From NCBI RefSeq assembly GCF_000017305.1, contig NC_009664.2, positions 930,001 through 962,000 on the forward strand: a stretch of DNA of 32,000 bases. The letters run 5' to 3'. This DNA comes from Kineococcus radiotolerans SRS30216 = ATCC BAA-149. GTDB taxonomy: Bacteria > Actinomycetota > Actinomycetes > Actinomycetales > Kineococcaceae. A program made the translations under genes and the position numbers. This document shows positions 7,628 to 29,408 of the stretch, in pieces (the stretch's first letter is position 1; each line of letters begins with the position of its first letter). The notes beneath the pieces were generated by a model. That model had not been told where the DNA came from. It worked only from the letters and a program-made list of their open reading frames with translations, and made no database searches.

Positions 7628-7638
7628 CAGGAGGAACC

Positions 7639-8616
7639 ATGCGCGATCTCGCGGCCCTGCCCAAGGCGCACCTGCACATCCACCTCGAGGGCGCCATGCG
7701 CCCCTCGACCCTCGCGGAGTTCGCGGCGGAGGCCGGCGAGACCGCTCCCCCGACCCGGGGGTTCACCTCCTTCCCGCAGTTCGTGGAGATGTACGACGGC
7801 GCCGTCGCGTTCATCCGGACGCGGGAGCAGCTGGCCCGGGTCGTCCGCGAGGTCGTCGAGGACGCGGCGCTCTCCGGCGCCGTCTGGATCGAGGCCCAGG
7901 CCAACCCGATGTTCTACGTGCCCCGGTTCGGGACTCCCGAGGAGGTCCTGACCTTCATGCTGGAGGTCGGCCGGGCCGAGGCCGCCCGCCTCGGCATCGG
8001 TTTCGGGATGATGGCCGTGGCCATCCGCAGCCTGCCGACCGCCGAGGCTGAGGCGCTGGCCGTCCTGGCCGCCGAGTTCGCCGACCGCGGGGTCGTCTCC
8101 TTCGGCCTCGCCGCCGACGAGGCGCTGTGGCCGCCGGCCCCCTTCGAGCGGGCGTTCGCCATCGCCCGCGAGGCCGGGCTGACGTCGGCCCCGCACGCCG
8201 GGGAACTGCTCGGGCCGGAGAGCATCGTCGGGGCCCTCGACCTGCTCGGGGCCCAGCGCATCCAGCACGGCGTCCGCGCCGTCGAGGACCCCGAACTGGT
8301 CCGGCGCCTCGCCGCCGAGGGCATCGTCCTCGACGTCTGCCCGACCTCGAACGTCGAGCTGTGGGTCGTCCCCGAGATCGGCGCGCACCCGCTGCCCGCG
8401 TTGCTGGAGGCCGGCGTGCGCTGCTCCATCAACGGGGACGACCCGCTCCTCTTCGGACCCGGGCTGCTGGAGGAGTATGAGACGGCCCGCACCGCGCTGG
8501 GGCTCTCCGACGACCAGCTCGCCGGTGTCGCCAAGGCGTCGCTGGAGGGCTCGGCCGCCCCCGCGGAGCTCGTCACCGCCCAGGTCGCCGCCGTCGACGC
8601 CTGGCTGGCGGGGTGA
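7639..8616 (+). CDS. add: adenosine deaminase family protein
   Basis: Metal-binding HxH motif LPKAHLHIHLEG, the HAGE motif (SAPHAGELLGPE), and a C-terminal SINGDDPLLFG (xNxDDP) motif. AGGAGGAA lies 4 nt upstream of the ATG. Confidence 0.9.
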   Translation: MRDLAALPKAHLHIHLEGAMRPSTLAEFAAEAGETAPPTRGFTSFPQFVEMYDGAVAFIRTREQLARVVREVVEDAALSGAVWIEAQANPMFYVPRFGTPEEVLTFMLEVGRAEAARLGIGFGMMAVAIRSLPTAEAEALAVLAAEFADRGVVSFGLAADEALWPPAPFERAFAIAREAGLTSAPHAGELLGPESIVGALDLLGAQRIQHGVRAVEDPELVRRLAAEGIVLDVCPTSNVELWVVPEIGAHPLPALLEAGVRCSINGDDPLLFGPGLLEEYETARTALGLSDDQLAGVAKASLEGSAAPAELVTAQVAAVDAWLAG

Positions 8617-11287: not shown

Positions 11288-11388
11288 GGGCGCCGACACT
11301 AGACCCGCGGTCGGCGCAGGTCGACGCCTCCGGGCGCAGCGGGCGCTCCCGCGCGACGCGGCGCCCTCCCCTCGGTAGGTTGCGGGTC

Positions 11389-13443: not shown

Positions 13444-13445
13444 CG

Positions 13446-15193
<1,748 letters not shown>

Positions 15194-15197
<4 letters not shown>

Positions 15198-16597
15198 GCG
15201 CGGACGTCCGCACCTCCGCCGCCTCCGACGAGGCCGTCGCCGCCCTGCTGCTCGAGTGGGCCCCGGCTCAGCGGTGGTTCGCGCACAAGGGCGTCGCCGC
15301 CCACGTGGAGCGCATCGAGCGCACCCCCCTCGACGAGGGCGGGGTGGCGCAGCTCGTCGCGCTCACCGTGCGCTCCGGGGAGGGCGAGGACGCCCCGCGC
15401 ACCGTCTACTCGGTGCCGATCAGCGTCCGCCCGGCCCCCGACGAGGCCCTGGCCGCGGCCCTCGTCGGCGAGCTCCCCGACGTCGACGGGGCCCGGGCCT
15501 GGGTCTACGACGGCCCGCACGACCCGACGTGGACGCGCGCGCTGCTGACCCTCGTCGCCAGCGAGGAGGGGGCCGGCTCGCGCAGCTTCGGCGTCCACGG
15601 CACCAGCGCCGACGGCGGGCTGCCCGTCCCGGCCGGGGCGCGCACCAAGGTGCTGGGCGGGGAGCAGTCGAACACCTCGATCGTCGTGGCCGCCGACGAG
15701 GGCGAGACCCCCCTCATCGCCAAGGTCTTCCGGGTCCTCTCCGCCGGGGACAACCCCGACGTCGTCGTGCAGACCGCCCTCGCCGACGCCGGCTGCGGGC
15801 GGGTCCCGCGCCCCTCGGGGTGGGTGGACGGCCACTGGACCGACGTCTCGGGCGAGCGGGTCGCGGGCCACTTCGTCCACCTGACGGAGTTCCTGGCCGG
15901 GTCCGAGGACGCCTGGCGGGTCGCCACGGCGGCCGTGGCGCAGGGGCGCGACTTCTCCGCCGAGGCCCGCGAGCTGGGCCGGGCCACCGCCGAGGTGCAC
16001 GCCGTGCTCGCGGCGGAGCTGGCCACCGAGGAGGCCACCCCGCAGCGGCTGGCGGCGCTGGCCGACGGCCTCCTGGAGCGGGTCGAGTGGGCCACCACGG
16101 CCGTCCCGCAGCTGCGCGAGGTGGCCGGGGCCGCCCGCGCCCGCGTCGACGCCGTCCGCGGCGTCGCGCACGCCCCGGCGCTGCAGCGCGTGCACGGGGA
16201 CTACCACCTGGGCCAGGTCCTGCACTCGGCCTCCCGGGGCTGGGTGCTGCTGGACTTCGAGGGCGAGCCGCTGCGGCCGCTGTCCGAGCGCAGCCTGCCC
16301 GACCTCGCGCTGCGCGACGTCGCGGGGATGCTGCGCTCCTTCGACTACGCCGCCTCCACCGTGCCCGACCCGGGCGACTGGGGCCCCCGGGCCCGGGAGG
16401 CGTTCCTCGACGGCTACGCCGAGGTCGTCGGCACCGACCCGCGGCAGGGCGAGCAGGCCGTGCTGCTGGCCGCCCTCGAGCTCGACAAGGCGCTCTACGA
16501 GGTCGTCTACGAAGCCCGCAACCGGCCCGACTGGTTGCGCATCCCGCTGGACGCCGTGCACCGGTTGCTCCAGTCCGCCTCCGCCGACCCGTCCTGA
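15194..16597 (+). CDS. pep2: maltokinase (maltose 1-phosphate-forming) Pep2/Mak
   Basis: Has the [12 protein letters not shown] motif, the catalytic [10 protein letters not shown]...DFEGEP motif and a [14 protein letters not shown]-terminus, all typical of Mak/Pep2. GTGA start/stop overlap with treS. Confidence 0.9.
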
Positions 16598-16634
16598 GAG
16601 GCGAGGTCCTGACCACCACGGGAGACTCCCAACC

Positions 16635-18833
<2,199 letters not shown>

Positions 18834-18989: not shown

Positions 18990-19925
18990 TCAGGCCAGGC
19001 CGAGCTCGGTCAGGAACGCCGTGGCGACGGCCGCCGAGGACTTCTTGTCCACCTGCACCTGGGCCAGGAACTTCGTGAGGTTCTCCGTCGTCAGCTTCGC
19101 CGACAGGCCGTCGAGGGCCTCGGTGATCTCGGGGGTGTTCTTCTCGGACCGGATGAGCGGGAGGATGTTCTCCGCCAGGAACAGCTGCTTGGTGTCCTCC
19201 AGGACGACGAAGCCGTTCGTCGTGATGGCGGAGTCGGTGGAGAAGATGTTGCCGACCTGGATGGTGCCGTCGGCCAGCGCCCCGACGGTCAGCGGGCCGC
19301 CGGCGTCCAGCGGGCGGAACTCCTTGAACTGCACGCCGTAGAGCTCCTTGAGCCCCACGAGGCCCTGGTACCGCTCCTGGAACTCCGGGCCGGCGCCGCA
19401 GACCAGCTCGCCGGCCACCGGCGCGAGGTCCTCGATGGTCTTCAGGCTGTACTTCGACGCCGTCTCCGCGGTCACGGAAAGGGTGTCCTTGTCCTCGGCG
19501 GCGGACTGCTCGAGGACCTCGGTCCCCTCCGGCAGGACCTCCTTCAGCGCCCCGAGGACGTCCTCGGGGGCCGAGACGCCCTCGGGGGCGCCGCCGTCGG
19601 ACAGGGCGGCGAGCAGCGCGCCGTTGTACTCCGGCAGCAGGTCGATGGAGCCGTCCTGGAGGGCCTTGAGGTACACCTCGCGGGCGCCGATGTTGAACTT
19701 CCGCTGGACCTCGACACCGGACTTCTCCAGCACCTGGGCGTACATCTCCGCGAGCAGTTCGCTCTCGGGGAAGTTGGCCGAGCCGACGATGACGGCGGCG
19801 GTGTCGGTGGCGGCCCCCGTCGAGGTGTCGGTGGCGGCCAGCGGGTCCTCCCCGCCACCGCAGGCGGTCAGCGCAGCGGTGAGGGAGCCCGCGAGGGCGA
19901 GACCGAGGAGTGACCTGCGATTCAT
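18990..19925 (-). CDS. glycine betaine/choline-type (OpuC/ProX family, OpuAC fold) ABC substrate-binding lipoprotein
   Basis: Signal peptide plus lipobox (LAGSLTAALTACGG). VIVGSANFPESELLAEMYAQVLEKSG...IDLLPEYNGALL... resembles OpuCC/OsmX-type quaternary-amine binding proteins. ATGA overlap with the upstream permease. Confidence 0.85.
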   Translation of the reverse strand: MNRRSLLGLALAGSLTAALTACGGGEDPLAATDTSTGAATDTAAVIVGSANFPESELLAEMYAQVLEKSGVEVQRKFNIGAREVYLKALQDGSIDLLPEYNGALLAALSDGGAPEGVSAPEDVLGALKEVLPEGTEVLEQSAAEDKDTLSVTAETASKYSLKTIEDLAPVAGELVCGAGPEFQERYQGLVGLKELYGVQFKEFRPLDAGGPLTVGALADGTIQVGNIFSTDSAITTNGFVVLEDTKQLFLAENILPLIRSEKNTPEITEALDGLSAKLTTENLTKFLAQVQVDKKSSAAVATAFLTELGLA

Positions 19926-20677
19926 GACGTGCCTTTCGACGTGCCTGCACCGATGAGTTCGGTGTCGGGTTCAACGGGGGACTCTGCCACGGATCCGCGG
20001 CGCCCCGCGCGGGAGCGGCCGCGGCCGCTGATGCCCGGGGAGACGACGTAGCGCTGGACCAGGCCCAGCAGCAGGTCGAGGACGATGGCCAGCGCCGCGA
20101 CCACGACGGCCCCGGCGACGACGCGGCCGTAGTCGTTGACGGCGAGGCCGTCGACGAGGAGGCGACCCAGCCCGGAGAGGCCGACGTAGGCGGCGACCGT
20201 CGCGGTCGCCACGACCTGCAGCACCGCGGCGCGGACCCCGCCGAAGACGACGGGCAGCGCCATGGGCAGCTCGACGCGGAAGAGGACCTGGGAGGAGGTC
20301 ATGCCCATCCCCCGGGCCGCGTCGACGGCGTTGCGGTCCACCGAGCGCAGCCCGGCGTAGGTGGAGGTGAGGATCGGGGGGATGACGAGCACGACGAGGG
20401 CGATGAGGACGGGGACGAACCCGAGCCCCATGAGCGTCACGAGCAGGCTCAGCAGGCCCAGCGTGGGCAGCGAGCGCCCGGCGTTGCCGGCGTTGATGGC
20501 CAGGAAGGACCCCTTGCCGGTGTGGCCGATGAGCAGGCCGATCGGGAAGGCGATGAGGAAGCCCACGGCCACCGAGATCGCGGTGTAGCCCAGGTGCGAC
20601 ACCAGCAGGTGCGGGATGGAGCCGGTGGTCCCCCAGTCCCAGTGGGCGGGGTCGAGCAGGTACGGGGTGCCGTCCAC
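19922..20677 (-). CDS. ABC transporter permease (OpuCB/OpuCD-like) with a roughly 40-aa hydrophilic C-terminal tail
   Basis: Hydrophobic BPD-type permease (...AGNAGRSLPTLGLLSLLV...DAARGMGMTSSQVLFRVELPMALPVVFGGVRAAVLQVVATATVAAYVG...). The GTG start lies 1 nt after the stop of the preceding permease. Confidence 0.85.
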   Translation of the reverse strand: MDGTPYLLDPAHWDWGTTGSIPHLLVSHLGYTAISVAVGFLIAFPIGLLIGHTGKGSFLAINAGNAGRSLPTLGLLSLLVTLMGLGFVPVLIALVVLVIPPILTSTYAGLRSVDRNAVDAARGMGMTSSQVLFRVELPMALPVVFGGVRAAVLQVVATATVAAYVGLSGLGRLLVDGLAVNDYGRVVAGAVVVAALAIVLDLLLGLVQRYVVSPGISGRGRSRAGRRGSVAESPVEPDTELIGAGTSKGTS

Positions 20678-20678
20678 G

Positions 20679-21335
20679 TCAGGCCCCCCGTTCCAGCCGC
20701 GTCCAGGGGGTCACGGCCCGCTGGAACAGCACGATGACGACGTCGGCGATGGCGGCCAGGGCGATGGAGAGCACGATCCCCACGACGATCGGGGCGGTGT
20801 AGAAGAGTTGGAACCCGCGGGTGAACAGCGCGCCCAGCCCGCCCACCCCGAGCAGCGCGCCGACGCTGACGAGGGAGATGTTGGACACGGCCGCGACGCG
20901 CACCCCGGCGAGGACGACCGGCGCGGCCAGCGGCAGCTCCACCTCGAGCAGGCGGCGGGTCCGCCGGTAGCCCATGGCCGTCGCGGCCTCGGTCAGGGTC
21001 GGGTCGACCGAGCGCAGGCCGTCGGCGACGGTGCGGGCCATCAGCGCGATCGTGTAGATCGTCAGCGCCACCACGATGTTCACCGGGGAGAGGATCCGGG
21101 TGCCCAGGACGTAGGGCAGGGTCACGAACACGGCCAGGGAGGGGATCGCGTACACGATCCCGGAGACCCCCAGCAGGGGCTGGTAGAGCCAGCCGAAGCG
21201 CACCCCGAGGTAGCCGATCGGCAGCGCCAGGGCGACCCCGATCACCAGCGGCAGGACGGCCAGCAGGACGTGCTGGCCGAGGGCGTCCAGGACGAGCCCG
21301 GAGTTGCCGGAGAGGTAGTCGAGGATCCCGTTCAC
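20679..21335 (-). CDS. ABC transporter permease (OpuCB/OpuCD-like)
   Basis: 218 aa, hydrophobic. ...EAATAMGYRRTRRLLEVELPLAAPVVLAGVRVAAVSNISLVSVGALLG... is an EAA-type loop. GTGA overlap with the ATPase stop. Confidence 0.85.
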   Translation of the reverse strand: MNGILDYLSGNSGLVLDALGQHVLLAVLPLVIGVALALPIGYLGVRFGWLYQPLLGVSGIVYAIPSLAVFVTLPYVLGTRILSPVNIVVALTIYTIALMARTVADGLRSVDPTLTEAATAMGYRRTRRLLEVELPLAAPVVLAGVRVAAVSNISLVSVGALLGVGGLGALFTRGFQLFYTAPIVVGIVLSIALAAIADVVIVLFQRAVTPWTRLERGA

Positions 21336-22312
21336 CGGCGCTCCTCCAGCAGGTCGACGACGTCGTGGTGGTGCACGATCCCGGTCGCCCGGCCCCGGTC
21401 GTCGACCTGCACCGCGATCCCGAGCGGGGAGGTGAGGGCCAGGTCGACGACGGTGCGCAGGGAGTCCCCGGCGCGGAAGCCGTCGACGCCGACGGGGCGG
21501 CCGTCCCCGTCGAGGACGAGCTGCGCGGCGCGCGCGTCGGTGAGGGGGCGCACCGGCAGGCCGTCCAGGCCCTCGAAGGACAGCCCGCGGTAGCCGCGGT
21601 CGCGGCCGACGAAGGTGCGCACGAAGTCGTCGGCGGGCTTGGTGAGCAGGTCGCGCGGGCTGCCGACCTGGGCGAGGTGCCCGCCCTGGCGGAAGACGGC
21701 GATGCGGTCGCCCAGGGTGATCGCCTCGTCGACGTCGTGGGTGACGACGGCGATGGTCTTGCCCAGCTCGCCCTGCAGGCGGAGGAACTCCTCCTGCAGC
21801 TGCCCGCGCACGACGGGGTCGACGGCGGAGAAGGGCTCGTCCATGAGCATGACCGGCGGGTCCGCGGCCAGGGCGCGGGCGACGCCGACGCGCTGCTGCT
21901 GGCCGCCGGAGAGCTGGGCGGGGTAGCGGTCGGCGAAGGCCGCGGGCAGCCCGACGCGCTCGAGCAGCTCGAGGGCGACCTGGCGCTGCCTGCCCCGCCC
22001 GACGAGCTTGGGCACCGTCAGGACGTTGTCGAGGACGGTCTTGTGGGGGAAGAGGCCCGCGTGCTGGATGACGTAGCCGATGCCCCGGCGCAGCGCGGCG
22101 GGGTCCTTGCCGCGGACGTCCTCGCCGTCGATGGTGACGCGGCCCGCGGTGGGCTCGACCATCCGGTTGATCATGCGCAGCGACGTCGTCTTCCCGCAGC
22201 CCGAGGGCCCCACGAACACCGTGATCTGCCCCGTGGGCAGTTCGAGGTCGAGGTGCTCGACGGCCACCGTCCCGTCGGGGAACTGCTTGCGGACGGCCTC
22301 GAACGTGATCAC
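21332..22312 (-). CDS. ABC transporter ATP-binding protein (OpuCA/ProV-like) with a C-terminal CBS-like region
   Basis: Walker A GPSGCGKTT, signature LSGGQQQRVGVARAL, Walker B VMLMDEPFSAVD, H-loop VTHD. I prefer the GTG at 22312 as the start (VITFEAVRKQF...), preceded by AGGAG. The track ORF extends to 22570, but the added N-terminus is low-complexity. Confidence 0.9.
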   Translation of the reverse strand: MITFEAVRKQFPDGTVAVEHLDLELPTGQITVFVGPSGCGKTTSLRMINRMVEPTAGRVTIDGEDVRGKDPAALRRGIGYVIQHAGLFPHKTVLDNVLTVPKLVGRGRQRQVALELLERVGLPAAFADRYPAQLSGGQQQRVGVARALAADPPVMLMDEPFSAVDPVVRGQLQEEFLRLQGELGKTIAVVTHDVDEAITLGDRIAVFRQGGHLAQVGSPRDLLTKPADDFVRTFVGRDRGYRGLSFEGLDGLPVRPLTDARAAQLVLDGDGRPVGVDGFRAGDSLRTVVDLALTSPLGIAVQVDDRGRATGIVHHHDVVDLLEERR

Positions 22313-22493
22313 TGGCGGCTCCTGGGTTGAACCGACGACGCCACGGGGCGCGCCTGCTGTGCTGCGGTCTCGGGCGGGTACATGGTTGGCGGTGGGTCGG
22401 GCCCGGTCAACTCCAGCCGACCGGGGACGACCAGCTTTCACCAGATCGAGACCTCGCACGGACCCGGGGTCGCGCGGGACCTGCGGAGGAAGA

Positions 22494-23987
22494 GTGCAGC
22501 ACGAGGACGCCCCGGGCGCGACTCGCGGGGTGCGGGTCGAGGGTCGCGGCCTCGGGCTGGACGACCTCACCGACCTCGCCCTGGGCCGCGCGCACGCGGT
22601 CGTCGACCGCGACGTGCTGGGCCGTCTCGGCGTGCTGCACGAGGCGATGGGCGCCGCCCGCGAGCGCGGCGCGGTCTACGGCGCGACGACCGGGGTGGGC
22701 GCCAACAAGGACGTCGAGGTCGACGACGAGCAGCACGAGCACCCGCAGGCCCACGGGCTGCGGCTGCTGCGCAGCCACGCGGCGTCGCTGGGCCCGGTGG
22801 AGGACGAGGCGACGACCCGCGCGGCGCTGGTGGTGCGGCTGAACCAGCTGCTGGCCGGCGCGCACGCGGGCCTGGGGGCGGGGATCAGCCCGCCGGTCCT
22901 GCGCGCCCTGGCCGAGGCGGTGGAGTCCGGGGCGCTGCCGACGCTGCACCGCTTCGGCGGCATCGGGACCTCGGACCTGGCGCCGCTGGCGGAGCTGGGG
23001 CTGACCCTCGTCGGGGAGCGGCCGTGGCGGCGCGGGGCGGTGGCGCCCGTGCCGCTGGGCGCCGCCGACGCGCTGCCGCTCATCAGCTCCCACGCCCTGA
23101 CGCTGGCGACGGCGTCGCTGGCCCTGTGCCGGTTGCGGCAGCTGCTGCTGGCGGGGACGGGGATCTCGGCGCTGTCGTTCCTGGCGCTGCGCGGCAACCC
23201 GCAGGCGTGGGCGCCGCCCGTGCACGCCGCCCGCGCCCACCCCGCCCAGACCGGGCTGGCCGCGACGCTGCACGCGCTGGTGGCCGGCGGCCCGGAACCC
23301 GCGCGGTTGCAGGACCCGTTCGCGCTGCGGACCGCGCCGCAGGTGCTGGCCCCCGCCTTCACCGCGGCGCAGGCCCTGGAGGACGTGCTGGCGCTGGAGG
23401 CCTCGACGCCCGGGGAGAACCCGCTGGTCTCCCCCGAGGGGGTCTTCCACCACGGCCAGTTCCACGCCGCGTCCCTGGCCACCGCCCTGGACACGTTGCG
23501 GGCGACCACCTTCGGGGTGCTGACGCTGTCCGCGGCCCGCCTCGCGCTGCTGCTGCGCCCGGAGCACACCGGGTTGCGGGCGTTCCTGGCCGCCGGTCCG
23601 CGCGGGAGCTCGGGCCTGATGATCGGCGAGTACGTCGTGCAGGACGTGCTGGCCGAGCTGCGCCCGGCGACGGCCCCCTCCACGTCGGGGACGGTCAGCA
23701 TCTCCCTCGGCCTGGAGGAGCACGCGAGCTTCGCGACCCAGGGGGCGCGCGCGCTGCGCCAGACCGCGGAGCTGGCGCCGGTGGTGCTGGCCGTCGAGGC
23801 GCTGGCCGCGGTGCGCGCGCTGCGGGCCGCGCCGGACCGGATGTCGCCCGGGGCGGCGGCGCTGTTCGCGGTCTTCGACGAGGTGCTCGGCCGCGACTCC
23901 CGCGACGCGCCCATCGGCCCGGACGTGGAGGCGGTGGTGGCGCGGGTGGTGGACCTGTCGCTGTTGGTGCGGGTCCCGCCGGTCTGA
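22494..23987 (+). CDS. histidine/aromatic amino-acid ammonia-lyase family protein, paralogue 1, lacking the canonical MIO-forming Ala-Ser-Gly triad
   Basis: Family motifs are present: AVYGATTGVG (Tyr loop), LLRSHAAS, GGIGTSDLAPLAELGL, LQDPFALRTAPQV, GENPLV...HHGQFHA, and GLEEHASF. Where the family has GASGDLAPL, this protein has GTSDLAPL (Gly-Thr-Ser, 22965-22973). The start is GTG 22494, preceded by GGAGGAAGA. The upstream part of track ORF 22080.. is antisense to the ATPase gene. Confidence 0.8.
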   Translation: MQHEDAPGATRGVRVEGRGLGLDDLTDLALGRAHAVVDRDVLGRLGVLHEAMGAARERGAVYGATTGVGANKDVEVDDEQHEHPQAHGLRLLRSHAASLGPVEDEATTRAALVVRLNQLLAGAHAGLGAGISPPVLRALAEAVESGALPTLHRFGGIGTSDLAPLAELGLTLVGERPWRRGAVAPVPLGAADALPLISSHALTLATASLALCRLRQLLLAGTGISALSFLALRGNPQAWAPPVHAARAHPAQTGLAATLHALVAGGPEPARLQDPFALRTAPQVLAPAFTAAQALEDVLALEASTPGENPLVSPEGVFHHGQFHAASLATALDTLRATTFGVLTLSAARLALLLRPEHTGLRAFLAAGPRGSSGLMIGEYVVQDVLAELRPATAPSTSGTVSISLGLEEHASFATQGARALRQTAELAPVVLAVEALAAVRALRAAPDRMSPGAAALFAVFDEVLGRDSRDAPIGPDVEAVVARVVDLSLLVRVPPV

Positions 23988-24002
23988 GGGCCGCGGGGCG
24001 GG

Positions 24003-24563
24003 TCAGTCCAGGGGGCGCAGCTCGTCGGCGTAGCTGACCGACATCCGGCGCATCACCCCGGAGGGGCTGATCGAGTACTGGCCCATCCGCCACAGCGGCG
24101 GGGAGTAGGCGTGGATGGACACCGAGCCGTCGACGGCTCCGGACATCCGGTGGATGTGGTCGGGGCCGAAGGCGAAGGACCGCCCGGCGGCGACGGTGCG
24201 GACGGCGGGTTCCCCGCCCATGCGGGGGTTGGCCTCGACGACGGCGCCGCGGGTGACGGCGACCGCGCCGGAGGAGGTGTCGTGGTCGTGCCAGCCGGTG
24301 TCGTCGTCGGTGTTCCAGCACAGCAGCCACACGTCGAGGTCGCCGTCGCGGTGCAGGGAGGCGTAGTGGCGTCCCCCGGTGTCGTGGCGGACGAGGTGCT
24401 CCCACGCCCCGGGCCGGCGGGCGGCCTCGTCGACCCAGTCCTTCAGCTCGCGCGGGGTGAGGGTGCGCCCGGGCGCGGGGGGCAGCCCGGCGGGCGGGCC
24501 GGCCGGGGCGCCGGGGGCGCCGGGCGCTCCGAGAGCTCCGGGGGCGTCGGGGGCGAGGGTCAT
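24003..24563 (-). CDS. cysteine dioxygenase type I-like cupin (thiol dioxygenase family)
   Basis: 186 aa. The cupin metal-ligand pattern TGWHDHDTSSGAVAVTRG ... GPDHIHRMSG ... SIHAYSPPL resembles bacterial CDO/MDO homologues. The N-terminal roughly 30 aa are Pro/Gly/Ala-rich. ATGA overlap with the upstream amidohydrolase gene. Confidence 0.75.
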   Translation of the reverse strand: MTLAPDAPGALGAPGAPGAPAGPPAGLPPAPGRTLTPRELKDWVDEAARRPGAWEHLVRHDTGGRHYASLHRDGDLDVWLLCWNTDDDTGWHDHDTSSGAVAVTRGAVVEANPRMGGEPAVRTVAAGRSFAFGPDHIHRMSGAVDGSVSIHAYSPPLWRMGQYSISPSGVMRRMSVSYADELRPLD

Positions 24564-25471
24564 CGGGGGCTCCCGTCGAGGAGGTGGGCGGGGTTGGTGG
24601 TGGTGAGGGCGTGCGCGAAGGCCGCCCCGAAGCCGGGGAGGTCCGCGGCCTCGAAGGGCTGGGCGTAGGGCCGGTCGGTGCCCAGCACGAGGGGGTCGAC
24701 GCCGACGACGCGGACGAGGGCGTCGATCGCGCGGGGCCCGTAGGAGCTGCTCTCGTAGTGCACCAGCGGGTCCAGGGGGCCCAGGGCGCCGCCGCGGGCG
24801 GCGAGGCGCTCGTGGTGCAGCGGCGCCAGCCCCGCCAGGGCGACGAAGGCGGTGCGCAGCCGGGGGTGCCGGGCGCGGCCGGCCACGTGCCAGGCCAGCC
24901 AGGCGGCGTGCAGCTGCTGGACGTAGGGCACCAGCGCGGGCCACCAGGGCGGCAGGGCGGCGTGGTCGCCCGCGGGCGCGGGCCCGGGGTGGACGAGGAC
25001 GGGCTTGTCGGCGAGCTCGCACTCGGCCAGCAGCGGGGCGAGGCGCTCCACGGCGCGGGGGTCGGCGAGGGCGGTGGCCGGCAACTGCAGACCGACGACG
25101 CGCTCGTGGCGCAGCGTCTTCGCGAGCGCGCCGGGGTCGAGGTCGGTGACCCCGGCGGCGGCCCAGACCCGGAAGGGCTCGGGCAGCTCGACGGCGCCCT
25201 CGTGCCAGGCGTCCAGCAGCGGCTGCGCCTCCTCGCCCGGCAGGTGCTCCAGCCCCAGCGGGGAGGACAGCGAGACCAGGGCCCGGCCGGTGCCGTCGGC
25301 GGCCTCGGCGGCGGCCCGGGCGGCGACGTCGTGGGCGGCGGGGTCGAGGGCGCAGGGCGGCTCGCCCGGCAGGTGCAGGGTCCAGCCGTCCAGGCGCGGC
25401 GGGGTGCGCCGCGCGCGCAGGGCCGCCAACAGGGACGGCGGCCACAGGTGCTGGTGGCAGTCGGTGCGCAC
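24560..25471 (-). CDS. Amidohydro_2 (ACMSD/LigI-type) metal-dependent hydrolase/decarboxylase family protein
   Basis: N-terminal HxH motif (VRTDCHQHLWPP), a late Asp motif (LVLGTDRPY), and about 300 aa in length. I prefer the GTG at 25471 as the start, preceded by GGAGGGGAGGGGG. The track start at 25534 lies inside an operator palindrome. Confidence 0.75.
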   Translation of the reverse strand: MRTDCHQHLWPPSLLAALRARRTPPRLDGWTLHLPGEPPCALDPAAHDVAARAAAEAADGTGRALVSLSSPLGLEHLPGEEAQPLLDAWHEGAVELPEPFRVWAAAGVTDLDPGALAKTLRHERVVGLQLPATALADPRAVERLAPLLAECELADKPVLVHPGPAPAGDHAALPPWWPALVPYVQQLHAAWLAWHVAGRARHPRLRTAFVALAGLAPLHHERLAARGGALGPLDPLVHYESSSYGPRAIDALVRVVGVDPLVLGTDRPYAQPFEAADLPGFGAAFAHALTTTNPAHLLDGSPR

Positions 25472-25495
25472 GGCGTCCCCCTCCCCTCCGGCTCT

Positions 25496-25509
25496 GTGAA
25501 GCGCTTCAC
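25496..25509. promoter_or_regulatory. LacI-family operator candidate O1: perfect 14-bp palindrome GTGAAGCGCTTCAC
   Basis: Perfect dyad with a central CG, matching the LacI/GalR-type operator architecture (TGnAAnCGnTTnCA). It lies 25 nt upstream of the amidohydrolase start and in the divergent intergenic region shared with the LacI gene. Confidence 0.65.
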
Positions 25510-25520
25510 TCCTCCGTCGA

Positions 25521-25534
25521 GTGAAGCGCTTCAC
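25521..25534. promoter_or_regulatory. LacI-family operator candidate O2: second identical 14-bp palindrome GTGAAGCGCTTCAC
   Basis: Identical copy, 25 bp centre-to-centre from O1. With flanking bases, the two form 16-bp perfect inverted arms (TGTGAAGCGCTTCACT / AGTGAAGCGCTTCACA) separated by 9 bp. Confidence 0.65.
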
Positions 25535-25592
25535 AGGGAGGTCGTCAAGTCGGGCCGCCCGGCGCGCGGCGGCCCGGGGTTACGCTGCGGCC

Positions 25593-26594
25593 GTGCCGAA
25601 CCGAGCGCGCCGCACGCTGCAGGACGTCGCCGACGCCGCCGGGCTCTCGCTGGCCGCGACCTCCTACGCCCTGCGCGGGGCCCGCGGGTCGGCCGCCACC
25701 ATCGAGCGCGTGCAGGCCCTCGCCCTCGAGCTCGGCTACCGGGTCGACCCCATCGCGCGCGCCCTGGCCAGCGGGCGGACCGGGACGGTGGGCATCAGCG
25801 GGTCGCTGCGCGACCTCTGGCAGCAGGACCTCTCGGTGATGCTGACCCGGGCCCTGCGCGCCGCCGACCGCGACGCCACCATCGCCGACGCCGACGCCGA
25901 CCCCGCCGTGGAGCGCCGCGTCGTGGAGCGCTTCGCCGAGCAGCGCGTCGACGGCGTCCTCGTCTCCCCCGTCGACCCCTCCGCCGACTACTGGTCCGCG
26001 CTCCCGCCCTCCACCGCGGTCGTCTCCATCGGCGACGCGCTGCCCGGCCGCCCCGGCAGCGGCGCGGTCCTCTTCGACAACCGTCACGGCGTGACGACGG
26101 CCCTGCGGCACCTGCGCGACCTCGGCCACCGGCGCGTCGCGCTGCTCACCACCTCCCTGCCCACGACCCCGGGCCGGCCCGCGGAGCTGCACGCCGTGGA
26201 GGCCGCGAAGCGCCTGGGGCTGGACCTGCTCGTCGTCCCGGCCACCGCCGCGCGGGCCGCCGCGGCCGCCGCCGGGCCCCTCACCGCCCCCGACCGGCCC
26301 ACCGCGGTGCTGTGCCTGTCCGACTCCCTCGCCTTCGGCGTCTACCGCGCGGCGGCCGACCTCGGGCTGCGGATCCCCGGGGACCTGTCCGTGGTCGGCT
26401 TCGACGACCACCAGCTGGCCGCCCTCGTCGCCCCCGGGCTCACCACCGCGGCCTGGGACGAGGACGCCGTCGTCGAGGCCGCCGTCGCGCAGCTGCTGGC
26501 CCTGGAGGGCGGTGGGGAGGTCCCCGCTCCGGTCACCTTCCGGCCCGAGCTCGTGGTGCGCTCCTCCACCGGCCCCCCGGCCGGCGCGGACTAG
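25593..26594 (+). CDS. LacI family transcriptional regulator
   Basis: N-terminal HTH TLQDVADAAGLSLAATSYALRG...IERVQALALELGYRVDPIARALASGRTGTVGI, followed by a periplasmic-binding-protein-like effector domain (...VDGVLVSP...LSVVGFDD...). The GTG at 25593 lies 7 nt after a TACGCT -10-like hexamer, so the transcript may be leaderless. The track start at 25521 is inside operator O2. Confidence 0.85.
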   Translation: MPNRARRTLQDVADAAGLSLAATSYALRGARGSAATIERVQALALELGYRVDPIARALASGRTGTVGISGSLRDLWQQDLSVMLTRALRAADRDATIADADADPAVERRVVERFAEQRVDGVLVSPVDPSADYWSALPPSTAVVSIGDALPGRPGSGAVLFDNRHGVTTALRHLRDLGHRRVALLTTSLPTTPGRPAELHAVEAAKRLGLDLLVVPATAARAAAAAAGPLTAPDRPTAVLCLSDSLAFGVYRAAADLGLRIPGDLSVVGFDDHQLAALVAPGLTTAAWDEDAVVEAAVAQLLALEGGGEVPAPVTFRPELVVRSSTGPPAGAD

Positions 26595-28018
26595 GCGCCC
26601 GCACCGCCCCAGCCCGCCTCCAGCAGGGCGCCGAGGCGGCCCAGGTCGCGGCCGTAGGGCCGGTCCGCGACGTCCTCGCCGAGCTCGGCGCCCACCGCGT
26701 CGAGCAGCGCGCCCAGCTCCGCCGACACCCCCGCCAGGCCCCCGCGCAGCAGCCGGGCGCGGTGCACGGCCAGCAGCTCCACGGCCACGACCTCGCGCAG
26801 GCCCGCGAGCACCTCGGCGAGGCCCTCGGCGGACTCCAGGGCGAAGCTCTGCACGTCCTCCTGCCCCAGCGAGGTCTCCACCGCCCCCAGCCCCGCCGGC
26901 AGCGCGAACCGCCGCAGCCGGTGCACGACCCCCACCGCGCGCTTGTGGACGGCGACCAGCCCCGCCTGCACCCCGGGCTCGGGCGAGAGCTGCGGGGGCA
27001 GCCCCGTCCGGGCGGGGTCGAGCATCCGGTGGGTGCGGGCCGCGCCGGTCTCGGCGAGGTGGACCAGCGCCGCGGCCAGGGCGTCGGAGTCGGCGCCGAG
27101 GTCGGTCCCGGCGAAGCCCGCGGTGCCGCCGAACCGCCCGTCGAGGAACGCGGGGGAATCGGTCACCCCCTCCAGCGCCCGGTCCGCCGCCGCCGCGAGC
27201 GCGTGGACGCGGCGGTGCACCAGCGCGCAGGCGGCGGCGCCGACCCGCACCGACACCGGGGCCTGCAGGCCGTGGACCTCCCCGCCCGGCCGCCGCTCGC
27301 GCAGCCGCGCCAGGACCGCGGCCAGGACGTCGTCGCCGCGGGCCGCCCCGGCCCGCACCGGGTCGCGGCTGGCCCGCAGGACCTCCCCGGAGGCGGCCAG
27401 CACGAGCTCGGCCTGCGCGAGCAGGAGGTCCGCCGCGGCGACGTGCAGCGTCGCCAGGGCGGTCGCGACGGGAACCCCCTCCAGGAACGCGACCCCCTCC
27501 TTGGGGCCGAACGGGAACTCCGGCAGGGCCCGCCCGTCGAGGGTCCCCGACCCGCCCAGGACCACGGCGCCCACGTGGGCGAGGGGGATGATCTCCCCCG
27601 CCGCCCCGTTGCCGCGCCGGGGGACCTGCGGGTGCACGCGGGCGTTCAGCAGTTCCACGAGCCGTTCGCACAGCTGCGGGGAGACGCCCGCCTCCGGGTG
27701 CAGGTACGTCCGCAGCCGCACGGCCAGGACGGCACGGACCTCCCGCTCGGACAACCACGGGGCCGACCCCACGGCCCGGCCGACGACCAGGTTCGCCTGG
27801 TGCCGGGCCCGGGCGGCGTCGTCGAGGTCGACCCCGGCCATCGCCCCCATCCCGGTGCTCACGCCGTAGACCGGGCCGGAACCCTCCAGCGCGGTCAGGA
27901 CCGCCGCCCGGGAACCGGCCAGCCGCCGCCGCAACCCCGCCGACAGCTCGACGCGCTCGCCGGCGGCGACCCGCAGGACGGCCGCCCGGTCCAGGTCGGG
28001 ACCGCGGTGCAGCAGCAC
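26591..28018 (-). CDS. histidine/aromatic amino-acid ammonia-lyase family protein, paralogue 2, lacking the canonical MIO triad (Ala-Ala-Gly)
   Basis: Family pattern: PVYGVSTGMG (Tyr loop), RRGNGAAGEIIPLAHVG (in place of KGSVGASGDLAPLAH), LQAPVSVRV, and GQEDVQSF. The GTG start lies 1 nt after the stop of the upstream serine hydrolase (TGAGGTG). Its stop overlaps the lacI-family stop (CTAG). Confidence 0.8.
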   Translation of the reverse strand: MLLHRGPDLDRAAVLRVAAGERVELSAGLRRRLAGSRAAVLTALEGSGPVYGVSTGMGAMAGVDLDDAARARHQANLVVGRAVGSAPWLSEREVRAVLAVRLRTYLHPEAGVSPQLCERLVELLNARVHPQVPRRGNGAAGEIIPLAHVGAVVLGGSGTLDGRALPEFPFGPKEGVAFLEGVPVATALATLHVAAADLLLAQAELVLAASGEVLRASRDPVRAGAARGDDVLAAVLARLRERRPGGEVHGLQAPVSVRVGAAACALVHRRVHALAAAADRALEGVTDSPAFLDGRFGGTAGFAGTDLGADSDALAAALVHLAETGAARTHRMLDPARTGLPPQLSPEPGVQAGLVAVHKRAVGVVHRLRRFALPAGLGAVETSLGQEDVQSFALESAEGLAEVLAGLREVVAVELLAVHRARLLRGGLAGVSAELGALLDAVGAELGEDVADRPYGRDLGRLGALLEAGWGGAGA

Positions 28019-28019
28019 C

Positions 28020-29408
28020 TCAGACGGGCCGGCGCAGGGTGCGCAGCGGCGGCCCGTGCAGCGGGGTGGTCGCCCACGTGCCGCGGAACTCCCCGCCGCG
28101 CAGGGTCAGGTGCAGGCGGTGCGGGGTTTCCAGGAACACGACCTCCAGGCCGCCCGCGCCGGCGCTGACAGCCAGGGGCCCGGTCACCGCCCACTCCCCC
28201 GCGCCGACCGCCGCGCGCAGCTCGTCGCCGGAGTCGTGCAGCACGACCTCGCCGCCCTCGACCACCACCCGCGTCAGCGAGGCGGGCTCGCTGCCGGCGG
28301 CGGCGGTGAACTCCCCCACCGGCAGGTCCCCCGCCGCGGCGGGCGGCAGGGCGAGCTGCGACAACCGCTGCGCCAGTTCGGCTTCGGCCGGGCCGGGGTC
28401 GGCCGGCAGCTCGGGATCGCCCAGCGCGGGCAGCAGGTGCTCCCACGCCGCGTCCAGGACGGCCTGCATGTCCGGGCTCTGCGAGGTGACCGCCACGACG
28501 GCGTCCTGCTCGGGCAGGACCACGCAGAACTGGCCGTAGGCGCCGTCGCCGCGGTAGCCGTGGCGGGCCACCCAGAACTGGAACCCGTAGCCCTGCTGCC
28601 AGTCGGGGTTGTCGTTGAACGAGGCGTTGTCGACGTGGGAGCGGGTGGCCTCCTCGACCCAGGCCTCCGGCAGCAGCCGTTCCCCGTTCCAGACCCCGCG
28701 CTGCAGGTACAGCTGCCCCAGCTTCGCGACGGCCTCGGTGGGGGCGTGGAAGCCGGACCACCCCAGCTCGCGGTCCTGCCCGTCGCGCAGCCAGCCGATG
28801 TCGCCGGCGTCGATCCCCAGCGGGTCGAGCAGGCGCGGGCGCAGGTACTCCAGCAGCCCCTGGCCGGACCGCCGCTGGACGATCGCCGAGAGGGCGAAGG
28901 TGCAGGGCTGGTTGTAGCAGAACAGGGTGCCGGGTTCCGCGTCGGGACGGAGCTGCAGGAAACCCCGCACGACGTCGCCCGAGGGGTGCTCCAGGGCCCG
29001 GCCGAGGGTCTCCTCGCGGTGCCCGCTGGCCATGGCCGCCACGTGGCGGACGAGGATGCGCCGGGCCCGGTCGTCGGTCACCTCGGCGTCGAACTCGGGG
29101 AAGTACGACACCACCGTCGCGTCGAGGTCCACCAGACCCTCCTCGACCGCGAACCCCAGCGCGGTCGAGGTGAAGCTCTTGCTGAGGGAGTAGAGCAGGT
29201 GCGGGCGCTGCGGCGCGTAGGGCGCCCACCACCCCTCGGCGACGACGGCCCCGTGGCGCAGGACCTGCACGCTGTGGGGTTCGACGTCCGGGGCGGCCTC
29301 CAGGGCGTCGAGGAACGCGGAGATCCCGCGGGCGTCGACCCCCTGGGCCGAGGGGCTCGTCCGGGGCAGCGGGCCGGGGACGGGGGACGGGGTGGCTTCG
29401 GTGCTCAC
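28020..29408 (-). CDS. beta-lactamase-fold serine hydrolase (class C/esterase/aminopeptidase-like)
   Basis: SxxK nucleophile motif in LLYSLSKSFTSTALG. The GYGFQFW motif and a roughly 460-aa length fit the 'serine hydrolase domain-containing protein' family. I prefer the GTG at 29408 as the start (VSTEATPSP...). The track start at 29513 adds an Arg/Gly-rich stretch. Confidence 0.8.
   Translation of the reverse strand: MSTEATPSPVPGPLPRTSPSAQGVDARGISAFLDALEAAPDVEPHSVQVLRHGAVVAEGWWAPYAPQRPHLLYSLSKSFTSTALGFAVEEGLVDLDATVVSYFPEFDAEVTDDRARRILVRHVAAMASGHREETLGRALEHPSGDVVRGFLQLRPDAEPGTLFCYNQPCTFALSAIVQRRSGQGLLEYLRPRLLDPLGIDAGDIGWLRDGQDRELGWSGFHAPTEAVAKLGQLYLQRGVWNGERLLPEAWVEEATRSHVDNASFNDNPDWQQGYGFQFWVARHGYRGDGAYGQFCVVLPEQDAVVAVTSQSPDMQAVLDAAWEHLLPALGDPELPADPGPAEAELAQRLSQLALPPAAAGDLPVGEFTAAAGSEPASLTRVVVEGGEVVLHDSGDELRAAVGAGEWAVTGPLAVSAGAGGLEVVFLETPHRLHLTLRGGEFRGTWATTPLHGPPLRTLRRPV

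Follow-up and report, generated by a model that had tools for sequence, protein, structure and literature searches.

To our knowledge, ergothionase is the sole characterised enzyme of the HAL family that lacks MIO. It sets the precedent for an MIO-less trimethylamine lyase of this family (PDB 6S7J), and in its pathway it is followed by thiourocanate hydratase, a desulfhydrase, and hydantoin-propionate hydrolase. Ergothioneine (ET) is also the substrate of ergothioneine dioxygenase (ETDO), a dimeric, 3-His thione dioxygenase whose sulfinate product slowly loses sulfur by itself. ETDO and an ergothioneine-sulfinate desulfinase were reportedly published as a pair by Nalivaiko, Vasseur and Seebeck (Seebeck laboratory) in Angew. 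Chem. in 2024, and the original ETDO authors are said to have proposed a role in managing cellular ET levels, not in catabolism. For the catabolism of ergothioneine sulfonate in Agrobacterium radiobacter (Yan, Huang and Zhang, ACS Catal. 2022), the first step is reportedly catalysed by a trimethylamine lyase that resembles ergothionase and whose substrate is an oxidised ET derivative.

Here, a 32-kb stretch of Kineococcus radiotolerans DNA (the window) was analysed. We consider it rather likely that it carries this species' version of a locus, widespread among actinobacteria, that serves ET import and oxidative degradation.

Results

The order and strands of six genes at positions 22494-29408, as placed by a first-pass annotation, were confirmed in the sequence of the window. 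The ATGA overlap that couples the amidohydrolase and cupin genes and the 1-nt gap between the serine hydrolase and HAL2 genes were likewise seen. The cluster had been set apart from the hut operon by the absence of urocanase and, in agreement, tblastn of the 32-kb window revealed neither hutU nor canonical hutH.

The cupin (24003..24563, minus strand) was rightly called "CDO-like", i.e., thiol-dioxygenase-like: it matches Pfam CDO_I (E 1.3e-12) and, in a phmmer search, is ca. 70% identical (E 2e-69) to PDB entries 8QFL-8QFR, entitled [quoted passage not shown] and released 2023-12-27. Neither the 3-His residues nor the counterparts of His147 and Tyr149 vary. Judged by its sequence, the cupin is an ergothioneine dioxygenase, a 3-His iron cupin orthologous to the crystallised T. 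tengchongensis enzyme.

The amidohydrolase coupled to ETDO (24560..25471, minus strand) has no direct match to any Pfam or NCBIfam model. The Amidohydro_2 identity assigned to it earlier nevertheless stands, on other evidence: a profile search of the PDB matched ACMSD over the full length (E 5.7e-6), precomputed PF04909 matches exist on its orthologues, and Foldseek with an AF2 model (pLDDT 89.6) retrieved IDCase, ACMSD, and LigW (E ca. 3e-14, TM 0.76-0.81), with gamma-resorcylate decarboxylase also among the structural matches. Residues H6/H8, H161, H219/H220, and D266, which provide the HxH, His, and Asp ligands, are invariant in the orthologues. Because of the modelled fold, the metal ligands, the coupling to ETDO, and the desulfinase reportedly published with ETDO, we infer that this enzyme may be the ergothioneine-2-sulfinate desulfinase.

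HAL1 (22494..23987, plus strand) and HAL2 (26591..28018, minus strand) both match Pfam Lyase_aromatic (E 4e-92 and 3e-80, respectively) and are 28.5% identical to each other; HAL2 shows 100% identity to a protein recorded for K. radiotolerans. The NCBIfam hutH model gives the two lyases 217 and 208 bits, against a cutoff of 539 bits. Ergothionase 6S7J is matched with 103 bits by HAL1 (E 1.8e-28) and with 83 bits by HAL2 (E 2.3e-22), and is no nearer to either than ordinary HALs are. In an alignment to P. putida HAL, the HAL1 loop reads G-I-G-T-S-D-L: it contains G-T-S and, relative to the HAL motif GASGD, is shortened by one residue. In HAL2 (52 orthologues aligned), A-A-G occupies the MIO site, Arg stands in for His83, and Glu for Asn195. 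Because of G-T-S in the shortened loop and of A-A-G, neither protein can form MIO, just as the first-pass annotation had held. All 53 HAL1 orthologues share a short loop, G-[AG]-I-G-T-[GAS]-D-L, with Ser-Ser replacing Asn195-Gly and Phe replacing Tyr280, and keep the equivalents of Tyr53, His83, Gln277, Arg283, Phe329, and Glu414; HAL1 retains the catalytic Tyr and the imidazole- and carboxylate-binding residues of HAL, having lost only the MIO loop and residues around the amine. The equivalents of Tyr53, Gln277, Arg283, and Glu414 are kept in the 52 HAL2 orthologues, where A-A-G and Arg81 are near-invariant. Both proteins thus look, at the level of sequence, like lyases that are maintained by selection and whose active sites are of an alternative type. 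On the basis of residue patterns and of synteny, we infer that HAL1 is a candidate hercynine (N-alpha-trimethylhistidine) trimethylamine-lyase, and HAL2 a candidate for a second, anciently diverged betaine trimethylamine-lyase.

Divergent from HAL1 is an importer composed of OpuAC, two BPD_transp_1, and ABC_tran/CBS proteins (Pfam), all encoded on the minus strand: an OpuC/EgtU-like substrate-binding protein (18990..19925; OpuAC, E 4.4e-48), permease 1 (19922..20677; E 6e-24), permease 2 (20679..21335; E 2e-17), and a ProV-type ATPase with a C-terminal CBS domain (21332..22312; NCBIfam proV subfamily, E 1.2e-90). These domains, and the GTG start of the ATPase gene at 22312, bear out the earlier description of a head-to-head OpuC/ProU-type quaternary-amine importer. 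Among proteins of solved structure, the ergothioneine-binding EgtUC domains match the binding protein best (E 2e-29).

Synteny was assessed in 80 actinobacterial loci, the best of 419 matching stretches that a species-genome collection yielded. The set conserved in these best 80 loci comprises the OpuC/EgtU-like importer (66-72 loci), HAL1 (53), the amidohydrolase-ETDO pair (adjacent in 79), LacI (60), and HAL2 (52). A binding-protein homologue, 58-79% identical, is encoded in an ABC operon at most 10 kb from ETDO in 66 of the 80, and each of the two permeases near ETDO in 67. HAL1, HAL2, and LacI are all kept with ETDO in Kineococcus, Actinoplanes, Paractinoplanes, Nocardioides, and Arthrobacter. 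Because the arrangement recurs in dozens of species of several actinobacterial genera, it is far beyond chance. The genes whose joint occurrence the first-pass annotation had proposed to survey (both HAL-like types, CDO-like, and Amidohydro_2) do co-occur in several actinobacterial genera, as does LacI; the serine hydrolase is confined to Kineococcus. Minimal clusters, with HAL1-type, LacI, amidohydrolase, and ETDO genes, are present in Nonomuraea gerenzanensis, Millisia (L027), and a MAG (L053); their retention of HAL1 suggests that this enzyme is tied to the ETDO product. In a Nocardioides subgroup of the best 80 loci, the importer, amidohydrolase, and ETDO occur alone. Blastococcus has a HAL2-type gene alone beside an orthologous importer, without ETDO, which suggests that the imported compound is itself the substrate of HAL2. 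These two patterns connect the importer with the substrate of the pathway. In two loci (L045, L056), amidohydrolase-ETDO is immediately preceded by canonical hutH (CSG motif) and hutU; in four others (L012, L022, L037, L065), these two genes immediately precede HAL2 and a gene of the ornithine-cyclodeaminase family (OCD/mu-crystallin). Such adjacency is seen in some Nocardioides. Because the cupin is orthologous to ETDO and the cluster is syntenic with a betaine importer and, in some loci, with hutH-hutU, the substrate inference made at first pass, uptake and degradation of an ergothioneine/hercynine-type betaine by a route other than thiourocanate hydratase, is supported.

The LacI-family repressor gene (25593..26594, plus strand; LacI HTH and Peripla_BP_3/1 domains in Pfam) is present in 60 of the best 80 of 419 loci, and is always divergent from the amidohydrolase-ETDO operon. 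The window contains two perfect palindromic operators, GTGAAGCGCTTCAC, at 25496..25509 (0 mismatches) and 25521..25534, a count reached in none of 100 shuffles. The tandem pair occurs in nearly all loci that have lacI; in loci without lacI, there is no site at this place. Neither HAL1/ABC nor the hydrolase-HAL2 unit has a LacI operator upstream. In the divergent promoter region of the ABC operon and HAL1 (22313..22493), an imperfect repeat, GTCTC-N6-GTGAA, takes the place of the GTCAC-N6-GTGAC found in other Kineococcus loci. The initial description of a "LacI-controlled cluster" has to be narrowed: LacI control, as predicted from operators whose presence tracks that of lacI in different genera, is supported for the amidohydrolase-ETDO operon and lacI itself, and not for HAL1/ABC or hydrolase-HAL2.

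The serine hydrolase (28020..29408, minus strand; Beta-lactamase family, PF00144, E 2.8e-35, with an SxxK motif), initially counted as a cluster member, is encoded in five of the best 80 of 419 loci, all of them from Kineococcus; in 48 others, an OCD/mu-crystallin gene takes its position. It is probably not a core member, being a genus-specific passenger co-transcribed with HAL2 in Kineococcus only.

Discussion

The reading that we regard as fairly probable is as follows. ET would be taken up by the OpuC/EgtU-like ABC importer, and ETDO, by orthology to the crystallised enzyme, would use O2 and iron to oxidise the thione to ET-2-sulfinate. The IDCase/ACMSD-like metalloenzyme would convert the sulfinate to hercynine and SO2, much as related enzymes decarboxylate (hetero)aromatic acids. 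HAL1 would then convert hercynine to urocanate and trimethylamine, a quaternary amine that can leave without MIO, as in ergothionase, and urocanate would enter the Hut pathway, encoded elsewhere in this genome. HAL2, in which the side-chain pocket is remodelled by the replacement of His83 with Arg and of Asn195 with Glu, would be a second betaine lyase, probably acting directly on an imported betaine: ET itself, oxidised ET, or hercynine. Through the two operators, the LacI-type repressor would control its own gene as well as the amidohydrolase-ETDO operon; the importer/HAL1 promoters carry a different palindrome.

Several observations count against this pathway. Two lyases exceed the needs of so simple a scheme, which also has no place for the OCD-family gene that most genera couple to HAL2. 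Genes of the HAL2 type are found in unrelated surroundings too (L084, L085), hutH and hutU are missing from the window, the binding protein lacks the Lys242/Ile243 pair of S. pneumoniae EgtUC, and the importer does not have the fused EgtU architecture. HAL1/ABC and hydrolase-HAL2 have no LacI operator before them, the lyases are no closer to 6S7J than HALs are, and the ETDO authors reportedly favour ET level management.

It is possible, though unlikely, that HAL1, HAL2, or both are actinobacterial ergothionases that act first, converting ET to thiourocanate and trimethylamine, while ETDO and the amidohydrolase desulfurise thiourocanate (or, in parallel, ET) to urocanate, hercynine not being a lyase substrate. 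The one characterised MIO-less HAL enzyme we know of is an ergothionase matched by both lyases, HAL2 stands beside the importer without ETDO in Blastococcus, and the Arg at the His83 position of HAL2 might interact with a thione or with an anionic group at C2. However, no genes for thiourocanate hydratase, desulfhydrase, or hydantoin-propionate hydrolase are present in the loci examined; the urocanase genes adjoining some clusters have canonical hutH as a neighbour and share ca. 87-93% identity; the crystallised ETDO was named and studied for ET itself; and HAL1 keeps the imidazole-binding His and Glu of HAL, as expected for an unsubstituted ring.

Management or recycling of the cell's own ET, either back to hercynine, its biosynthetic precursor, or as a source of sulfite, with the HAL-like genes as neighbours that have another job, seems doubtful. 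Control of ET content is what the ETDO authors are said to have proposed, and would suit the lyase-free Nocardioides subgroup; against it are the retention of HAL1, HAL2, and LacI with ETDO in five genera and of HAL1 even in minimal clusters, the adjacency of hutH-hutU in some loci, and the combination of a dedicated high-affinity-type importer with a substrate-type repressor, typical of catabolic loci. We think it improbable that one of the two paralogues, HAL2 or else HAL1, is inactive as an enzyme and serves solely as the other's structural or regulatory partner in a mixed tetramer: both lack MIO and nearly always occur together in larger clusters, but each keeps the catalytic Tyr, carboxylate-binding Arg, Gln, and Glu in more than 50 orthologues, they share little identity, and each is found without the other in some genomes. 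The initial alternative of sugar acid or glycosylated thiol (mycothiol) degradation, with a lactonase and a sugar-sensing LacI, draws on the facts that LacI-family regulators often sense sugars and that some Amidohydro_2 members are lactonases, but is effectively refuted by the identity of the cupin to ETDO and by an amidohydrolase whose nearest folds in Foldseek are non-oxidative decarboxylases, not lactonases, the importer also being of betaine type and no sugar-metabolism gene being conserved in the best 80 of 419 loci.

The first-pass view of an "undescribed catabolic system" no longer applies to the core ETDO/desulfinase pathway, which has already been described, the ETDO structures having been public since 2023. 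A literature search outside the original ETDO paper and its supplement returned no description of the two ancient MIO-less lyases, the importer, or the regulation, which are, as far as we found, the parts still uncharacterised.

The ET catabolic locus proposed here shares with the ergothionase pathway of Treponema denticola (6S7J) and Burkholderia sp. HME13 an MIO-less HAL fold and, presumably, elimination of a quaternary amine, trimethylamine. It differs in the distance of HAL1 and HAL2 from 6S7J, in having no thiourocanate-processing genes, and in the proposed oxidative departure of sulfur, either ahead of the lyase reaction or independently of it. Ergothioneine sulfonate catabolism of A. 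radiobacter might serve as a model for HAL2, whose pocket is remodelled by Arg and Glu; no downstream genes associated with that pathway were recognised at this locus. HutH belongs to the same lyase superfamily, HAL1 retains six of its active-site equivalents, and Nocardioides clusters adjoin genuine hutH-hutU, whereas HAL1 and HAL2 have no Ala/Cys-Ser-Gly triad, Asn195 is replaced, and the window has no hutU. EgtU (EgtUV) of Firmicutes and Helicobacter is likewise an OpuC-type betaine system, is represented by EgtUC among the best solved relatives, and resembles the window's importer in genomic coupling to ET enzymes; EgtU, however, is a fused permease/binding-domain protein, while the importer has four separate components, identity is ca. 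30%, with other OpuC/ProX proteins scoring almost equally, and the positions of Lys242/Ile243 of S. pneumoniae EgtUC are Ala/Asn in an alignment with the window's binding protein. The closest counterpart is the T. tengchongensis ETDO/desulfinase pair, with the same iron ligands and His147/Tyr149 equivalents in the cupin; here too, the partner of ETDO is a metal-dependent enzyme of the amidohydrolase superfamily, translationally coupled to it and with a fold that would suit SO2 extrusion. To this pair, the window adds a dedicated betaine importer, a LacI repressor with its operators, and two MIO-less HAL-family lyases.

Gene organization of the window

The window has a G+C content of ca. 75%, and one of the proteins it encodes matches a K. 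radiotolerans protein at 100% identity. Genes were called from third-position G+C and ORF analysis, with junctions read directly in the sequence. The genes of an ABC importer form one minus-strand operon (18990-22312), which encodes a binding protein (18990-19925, Pfam OpuAC), two permeases (19922-20677 and 20679-21335, both BPD_transp_1), and an ATPase (21332-22312, ABC_tran with CBS). Next come HAL1 (22494-23987, plus strand, Lyase_aromatic), a cupin gene (24003-24563, minus strand, CDO_I), an amidohydrolase gene (24560-25471, minus strand, identified by profile search, by PF04909 on orthologues, and by a structure model), lacI (25593-26594, plus strand, LacI domains), HAL2 (26591-28018, minus strand, Lyase_aromatic), and a serine hydrolase gene (28020-29408, minus strand, Beta-lactamase). 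ORF analysis gives these last six genes, and Pfam confirms the domains of all but the amidohydrolase; their order and strands are those of the first-pass annotation, and the ATGA overlap of the amidohydrolase and cupin genes and the 1-nt spacing between the hydrolase gene and HAL2, which it had also reported, were both seen on direct reading. No homologue of the ornithine-cyclodeaminase/mu-crystallin family (OCD), no hutU, and no canonical hutH was found within the window.

A separate cluster at 1636-8616 encodes an ABC permease, an ABC ATPase, an NMT1/THI5-like binding protein, a luciferase-like monooxygenase, and a TetR regulator. It resembles sulfonate/alkanesulfonate-type utilization systems and is followed by an adenosine deaminase gene; tying it to sulfur scavenging from ergothioneine would be speculative. 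An alpha-glucan block (8723-18833), which includes genes for a glucan phosphorylase-like protein (DUF3417 and Phosphorylase), a GlgE maltosyltransferase, and a GlgB branching enzyme, is unrelated to the ergothioneine locus.

The cupin and its predicted substrate

A phmmer comparison of the cupin with PDB sequences returned entries 8QFL, 8QFM, 8QFN, 8QFP, 8QFO, 8QFQ, and 8QFR as the best matches (E 2e-69, ca. 70% identity over 157 residues), whereas ordinary cysteine dioxygenases reached E 4e-5 or worse in the same search. The entries are titled 'Ergothioneine dioxygenase from Thermocatellispora tengchongensis', were released on 2023-12-27, and include, according to their titles, variants H147A and Y149F. 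The cupin motifs GWHDHD, GPDHIHR, and SIHAYSPP are those of 8QFL, and the 3-His iron ligands, together with the equivalents of His147 and Tyr149, are invariant in the window cupin and 14 homologues. The cupin is very probably an ergothioneine dioxygenase (ETDO), predicted to carry out the O2-dependent conversion of ergothioneine to its sulfinate. With this level of identity, the first-pass proposal of an ergothioneine-type substrate, made from sequence alone, was essentially right. In an independent preprint, ETDO is characterized as a dimeric thione dioxygenase of the 3-His type; spontaneous desulfination of its sulfinate product is slow.

For ETDO, a structure model based on 15 close homologues was of low quality, with a pLDDT of 48.5, and its Foldseek hits were used for PDB titles, not as evidence of fold. 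The N-terminus of the K. radiotolerans protein (24480-24563) carries a Pro/Gly/Ala-rich extension of ca. 25 residues, APGALGAPGAPGAPAGPPAG, which the alignment with the crystal structure does not cover and which is shorter and different in sequence in most homologues.

Conservation of the locus

An ETDO-anchored scan, with one genome per species, gave 419 matching stretches. The best 80 were kept; they come from Kineococcus, Actinoplanes/Paractinoplanes, Nocardioides, Arthrobacter, Millisia, Frigoribacterium, and MAGs. Genes were counted in these best 80 of 419 loci by tblastn with the window proteins. The amidohydrolase gene was adjacent to ETDO in 79 loci, ABC importer genes were present in 66-72, LacI in 60, HAL1-type lyases (at least 45% identity) in 53, HAL2-type lyases in 52, and the serine hydrolase in five, all Kineococcus. 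The gene combination proposed earlier thus recurs across genera, with the exception of the serine hydrolase.

In 48 of the best 80 of 419 loci, an OCD gene (PF02423, E 2.7e-52) is found upstream of HAL2, and it is directly upstream in every HAL2-bearing non-Kineococcus locus of this set but one (L041). It is 70-85% identical across genera, more conserved than HAL2, and its stop/start often overlaps HAL2. An example is positions 5530-6546 (plus strand) of locus L008; Kineococcus has the serine hydrolase at that position. Smaller gene sets also occur. One Nocardioides subgroup has the importer, amidohydrolase, and ETDO only, and in Nonomuraea gerenzanensis, Millisia, and one MAG the set is limited to a HAL1-type lyase, LacI, amidohydrolase, and ETDO. 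A metagenomic contig carries a full Pfam-labelled set consisting of RpiR, OCD, HAL2, LacI, amidohydrolase, ETDO, HAL1, and ABC genes. In some loci, further genes separate ETDO from HAL1; they are mutually unrelated and add no conserved enzyme.

In several Nocardioides-type genomes, canonical hutH and hutU lie on the same strand directly upstream of OCD-HAL2 or amidohydrolase-ETDO (L012 2250-5488, L022 1315-4502, L037 1236-4456, L065 2194-5435, L045 3942-9018, and L056 5682-8959, in the coordinates of each locus). The hutH adjoining the cluster has a Cys-Ser-Gly MIO motif and scores 618 bits to Lyase_aromatic; in L012, stop and start codons overlap.

The amidohydrolase as a predicted desulfinase

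The first-pass assignment of the amidohydrolase to Amidohydro_2 has no direct match in Pfam or NCBIfam behind it, even at E up to 1, but is backed by precomputed PF04909 matches on some orthologues, by a profile search, and by a structure model. A profile of 14 orthologues matched ACMSD over its full length in a PDB search (E 5.7e-6). Residues H6, H8, H161, and D266 align with the ACMSD motifs HSH, VHPW, and SDYP, the aspartate motif being SD(R/Y)P in the profile alignment; these residues and a His-His pair, H219/H220, are invariant in 58 amidohydrolase sequences. The protein thus has the metal-ligand pattern of an N-terminal HxH, a His of strand 5 or 6, and a C-terminal Asp. A Foldseek search with its AlphaFold (AF2) model (pLDDT 89.6) found IDCase, ACMSD, LigW, and gamma-RSD (E ca. 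3e-14 to 1e-10, TM 0.66-0.81). Model and search together identify the fold as the TIM barrel of metal-dependent non-oxidative decarboxylases. These four enzymes, of which IDCase, LigW, and gamma-RSD are the iso-orotate, 5-carboxyvanillate, and gamma-resorcylate decarboxylases, extrude CO2 from (hetero)aromatic carboxylates, and the extrusion of SO2 from imidazole-2-sulfinate would be the obvious analogue.

In 2024, the Seebeck laboratory reportedly described ETDO along with a metal-dependent ergothioneine-sulfinate desulfinase, whose products are N-alpha-trimethylhistidine (hercynine) and SO2. We take the amidohydrolase to correspond to this desulfinase, an assumption based on that work and on operon coupling to ETDO in 79 of the best 80 of 419 loci. 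The fold of the amidohydrolase and its coupling to ETDO are demonstrated; judging from both, the enzyme is likely an ergothioneine-sulfinate desulfinase.

Two lyases without the MIO triad

HAL1 and HAL2, the two HAL-family lyase-like proteins, are only 28.5% identical to each other, and each is ca. 30-32% identical to a canonical actinobacterial HutH. Judged by these sequences, they are ancient separate subfamilies, not recent duplicates. Their scores against the hutH equivalog TIGR01225 are 216.8 and 207.8 bits, respectively (cutoff 539). Neither has the MIO triad, as had been claimed: the loop reads G-T-S in HAL1, where it is one residue shorter than GASGD, and A-A-G in HAL2, and both motifs are conserved in orthologues (the HAL1 consensus from 53 orthologues is G-[AG]-I-G-T-[GAS]-D-L).

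Mutagenesis of HAL has assigned Tyr53 as the base, Arg283 to carboxylate binding, and His83 and Glu414 to imidazole binding; Asn195, Tyr280, and MIO surround the amine. Alignment of HAL1 and its 53 orthologues with P. putida HAL revealed that equivalents of Tyr53, His83, Gln277, Arg283, Phe329, and Glu414 are kept, while Ser-Ser replaces Asn195-Gly and Phe replaces Tyr280. Since only amine-side residues are replaced, only the part of the HAL1 pocket that faces the leaving group is changed, as would be expected if the substrate were histidine whose amine is trimethylated. HAL1 is therefore a candidate hercynine lyase, an assignment to which we give an even chance. In the orthologue alignment, HAL2 retains counterparts of Tyr53, Gln277, Arg283, and Glu414; its A-A-G is near-invariant, and it has Arg for His83, Glu for Asn195, and Val/Leu for Tyr280. 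Such a pocket points to a different side chain, perhaps one that bears a thione or has an anionic substituent at C2. HAL2 may be a second betaine lyase, and any specific substrate can be proposed for it only tentatively. A reading of the two proteins as pseudo-enzymes was rejected, since the catalytic residues are invariant across orthologues and such strict conservation argues against it.

Blastococcus sp. LR1 (locus L082, 10001-15091) has a HAL2-type lyase (56% identical, with the A-A-G motif and Arg in place of His83) whose gene immediately precedes those of an importer with 68-76% identity to that of the window, and no ETDO, amidohydrolase, HAL1, or LacI gene was found within 10 kb. The occurrence of HAL2 beside the importer alone suggests that it acts directly on the imported compound. 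A FAD_binding_2 oxidoreductase gene and two Amidohydro_1/3 genes are located near this lyase gene.

HAL2-like lyases, 55-61% identical, are also encoded on two metagenome contigs (L084 10001-11476 and L085 10001-11509) with no ergothioneine-related genes in context; they adjoin aldo-keto reductase and TetR genes, or a zinc alcohol dehydrogenase gene. The HAL2 subfamily may thus not be restricted to the ergothioneine pathway. When plasmids were searched for ergothionase genes by tblastn, with HAL1 as the query, the only hits were ordinary hutH genes and two actinobacterial HAL1-type genes.

The importer

The best solved relatives of the binding protein are EgtUC ergothioneine-binding domains (E 2e-29), with other OpuC/ProX proteins only slightly behind. 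The positions of S. pneumoniae EgtUC Lys242/Ile243 are occupied by Ala/Asn in the window protein, at an overall identity of ca. 30%; H. pylori EgtUC differs there too. Mainly on the strength of genomic coupling, including the loci that pair the importer only with ETDO and the desulfinase, specificity for ergothioneine is moderately likely.

Regulation

The LacI protein consists of an N-terminal LacI HTH and a periplasmic-binding-protein-like effector domain. The amidohydrolase-lacI intergenic region contains two perfect 14-bp palindromes, GTGAAGCGCTTCAC, at 25496-25509 and 25521-25534, 59-97 bp upstream of lacI. Among the best 80 of 419 loci, a tandem pair occurs at the same place in nearly all that bear lacI (as the variant GTGAACCGGTTCAC in Arthrobacter and Frigoribacterium), a few lacI-bearing loci have only one site within two mismatches, and loci without lacI have no site at that position. 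No such operator was found, at up to three mismatches, upstream of HAL1/ABC or of the hydrolase-HAL2 unit. The whole cluster had been thought to be LacI-controlled; the predicted operators, limited as they are to the amidohydrolase-lacI region, support control of the amidohydrolase-ETDO operon and autoregulation of lacI, and not control of the rest. The repressor and its operators could also act as a switch that responds to ergothioneine or hercynine.

In mechanical ORF calling, both the amidohydrolase and LacI start with 'MKRFT' (25496-25534). This is because the long ORFs start inside the palindromic operators, where GTGAAGCGCTTCAC reads V-K-R-F-T whichever strand is translated; the genes actually start downstream of the operators, at 25471 for the amidohydrolase and 25593 for lacI.

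Between HAL1 and the ABC genes lies a conserved palindrome unlike the LacI operator, with the form TGAAT-N6-ATTCA in Actinoplanes and Arthrobacter (TGAATAGCGCCATTCA and TGAATCAACTTATTCA, respectively) and GTCAC-N6-GTGAC in Kineococcus loci (GTCACGATCGGGTGAC); the copy in the window (22313-22493) is imperfect. In 42 of the best 80 of 419 loci, OCD occurs together with a gene for an RpiR/MurR-type regulator, which may be the cognate factor of this palindrome.

Proposed pathway

Ergothioneine would be imported and converted by ETDO to ergothioneine 2-sulfinate, from which the desulfinase would release SO2 and hercynine. HAL1 would then eliminate trimethylamine from hercynine, and the resulting urocanate would enter the Hut pathway, encoded elsewhere in the genome; HAL2 would be a second betaine lyase beside HAL1. 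In its full form, this scheme has HAL1 as a dedicated hercynine (N-alpha-trimethylhistidine) trimethylamine-lyase and HAL2 as a mechanistically related lyase, with an Arg/Glu pocket for ergothioneine or oxidized ergothioneine and an OCD-family partner in most genera; together with ETDO and the desulfinase, they would make up a complete aerobic conversion of ergothioneine to urocanate, sulfite, and trimethylamine. We consider the full scheme possible, though with rather less than even confidence. If true, it would be a route not described before, with two new HAL-superfamily enzyme specificities.

To our knowledge, the environmental turnover of ergothioneine, an antioxidant abundant in microbes and in the diet, is poorly understood: the ETDO/desulfinase step is known, the fate of hercynine is not. 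Should the lyases convert hercynine or similar betaines to urocanate and trimethylamine, ergothioneine mineralization in soil actinobacteria would be complete and aerobic, a new microbial source of trimethylamine would be identified, and two new cases would be added in which the MIO scaffold is re-used for quaternary-amine elimination.

Comparison with known systems

The description of the cluster as an undescribed system was overstated, since its core of ETDO and desulfinase has already been described, the former in PDB titles and the latter reportedly by the Seebeck laboratory. A search of the open literature, which did not extend to the primary ETDO paper, found no hercynine or trimethylhistidine lyase and no paper linking ergothioneine with ornithine cyclodeaminase. 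Within the same scope, we found no description of the conserved pairing of this core with two MIO-less lyases, nor of the importer, the operator/repressor pair, the OCD partner, or the hut adjacency. Thiourocanate hydratase and desulfhydrase are absent from the window and from the conserved gene families of the best 80 loci.

EgtU has a permease and solute-binding domain fused in one protein (EgtUBC) and an ATPase, whereas the window importer has a separate binding protein and two permeases. From HutH, both HAL1 and HAL2 differ in lacking the Ala/Cys/Thr-Ser-Gly triad and in scoring below the equivalog cutoff. The Treponema denticola ergothionase structure, 6S7J, ranks only 9th with HAL1 as the query (103 bits) and 13th with HAL2 (83 bits), and is outranked for both by ordinary HALs and tyrosine aminomutases; yet HAL1 and HAL2 are like ergothionase in combining a HAL/PAL fold without the MIO triad with a retained catalytic Tyr.
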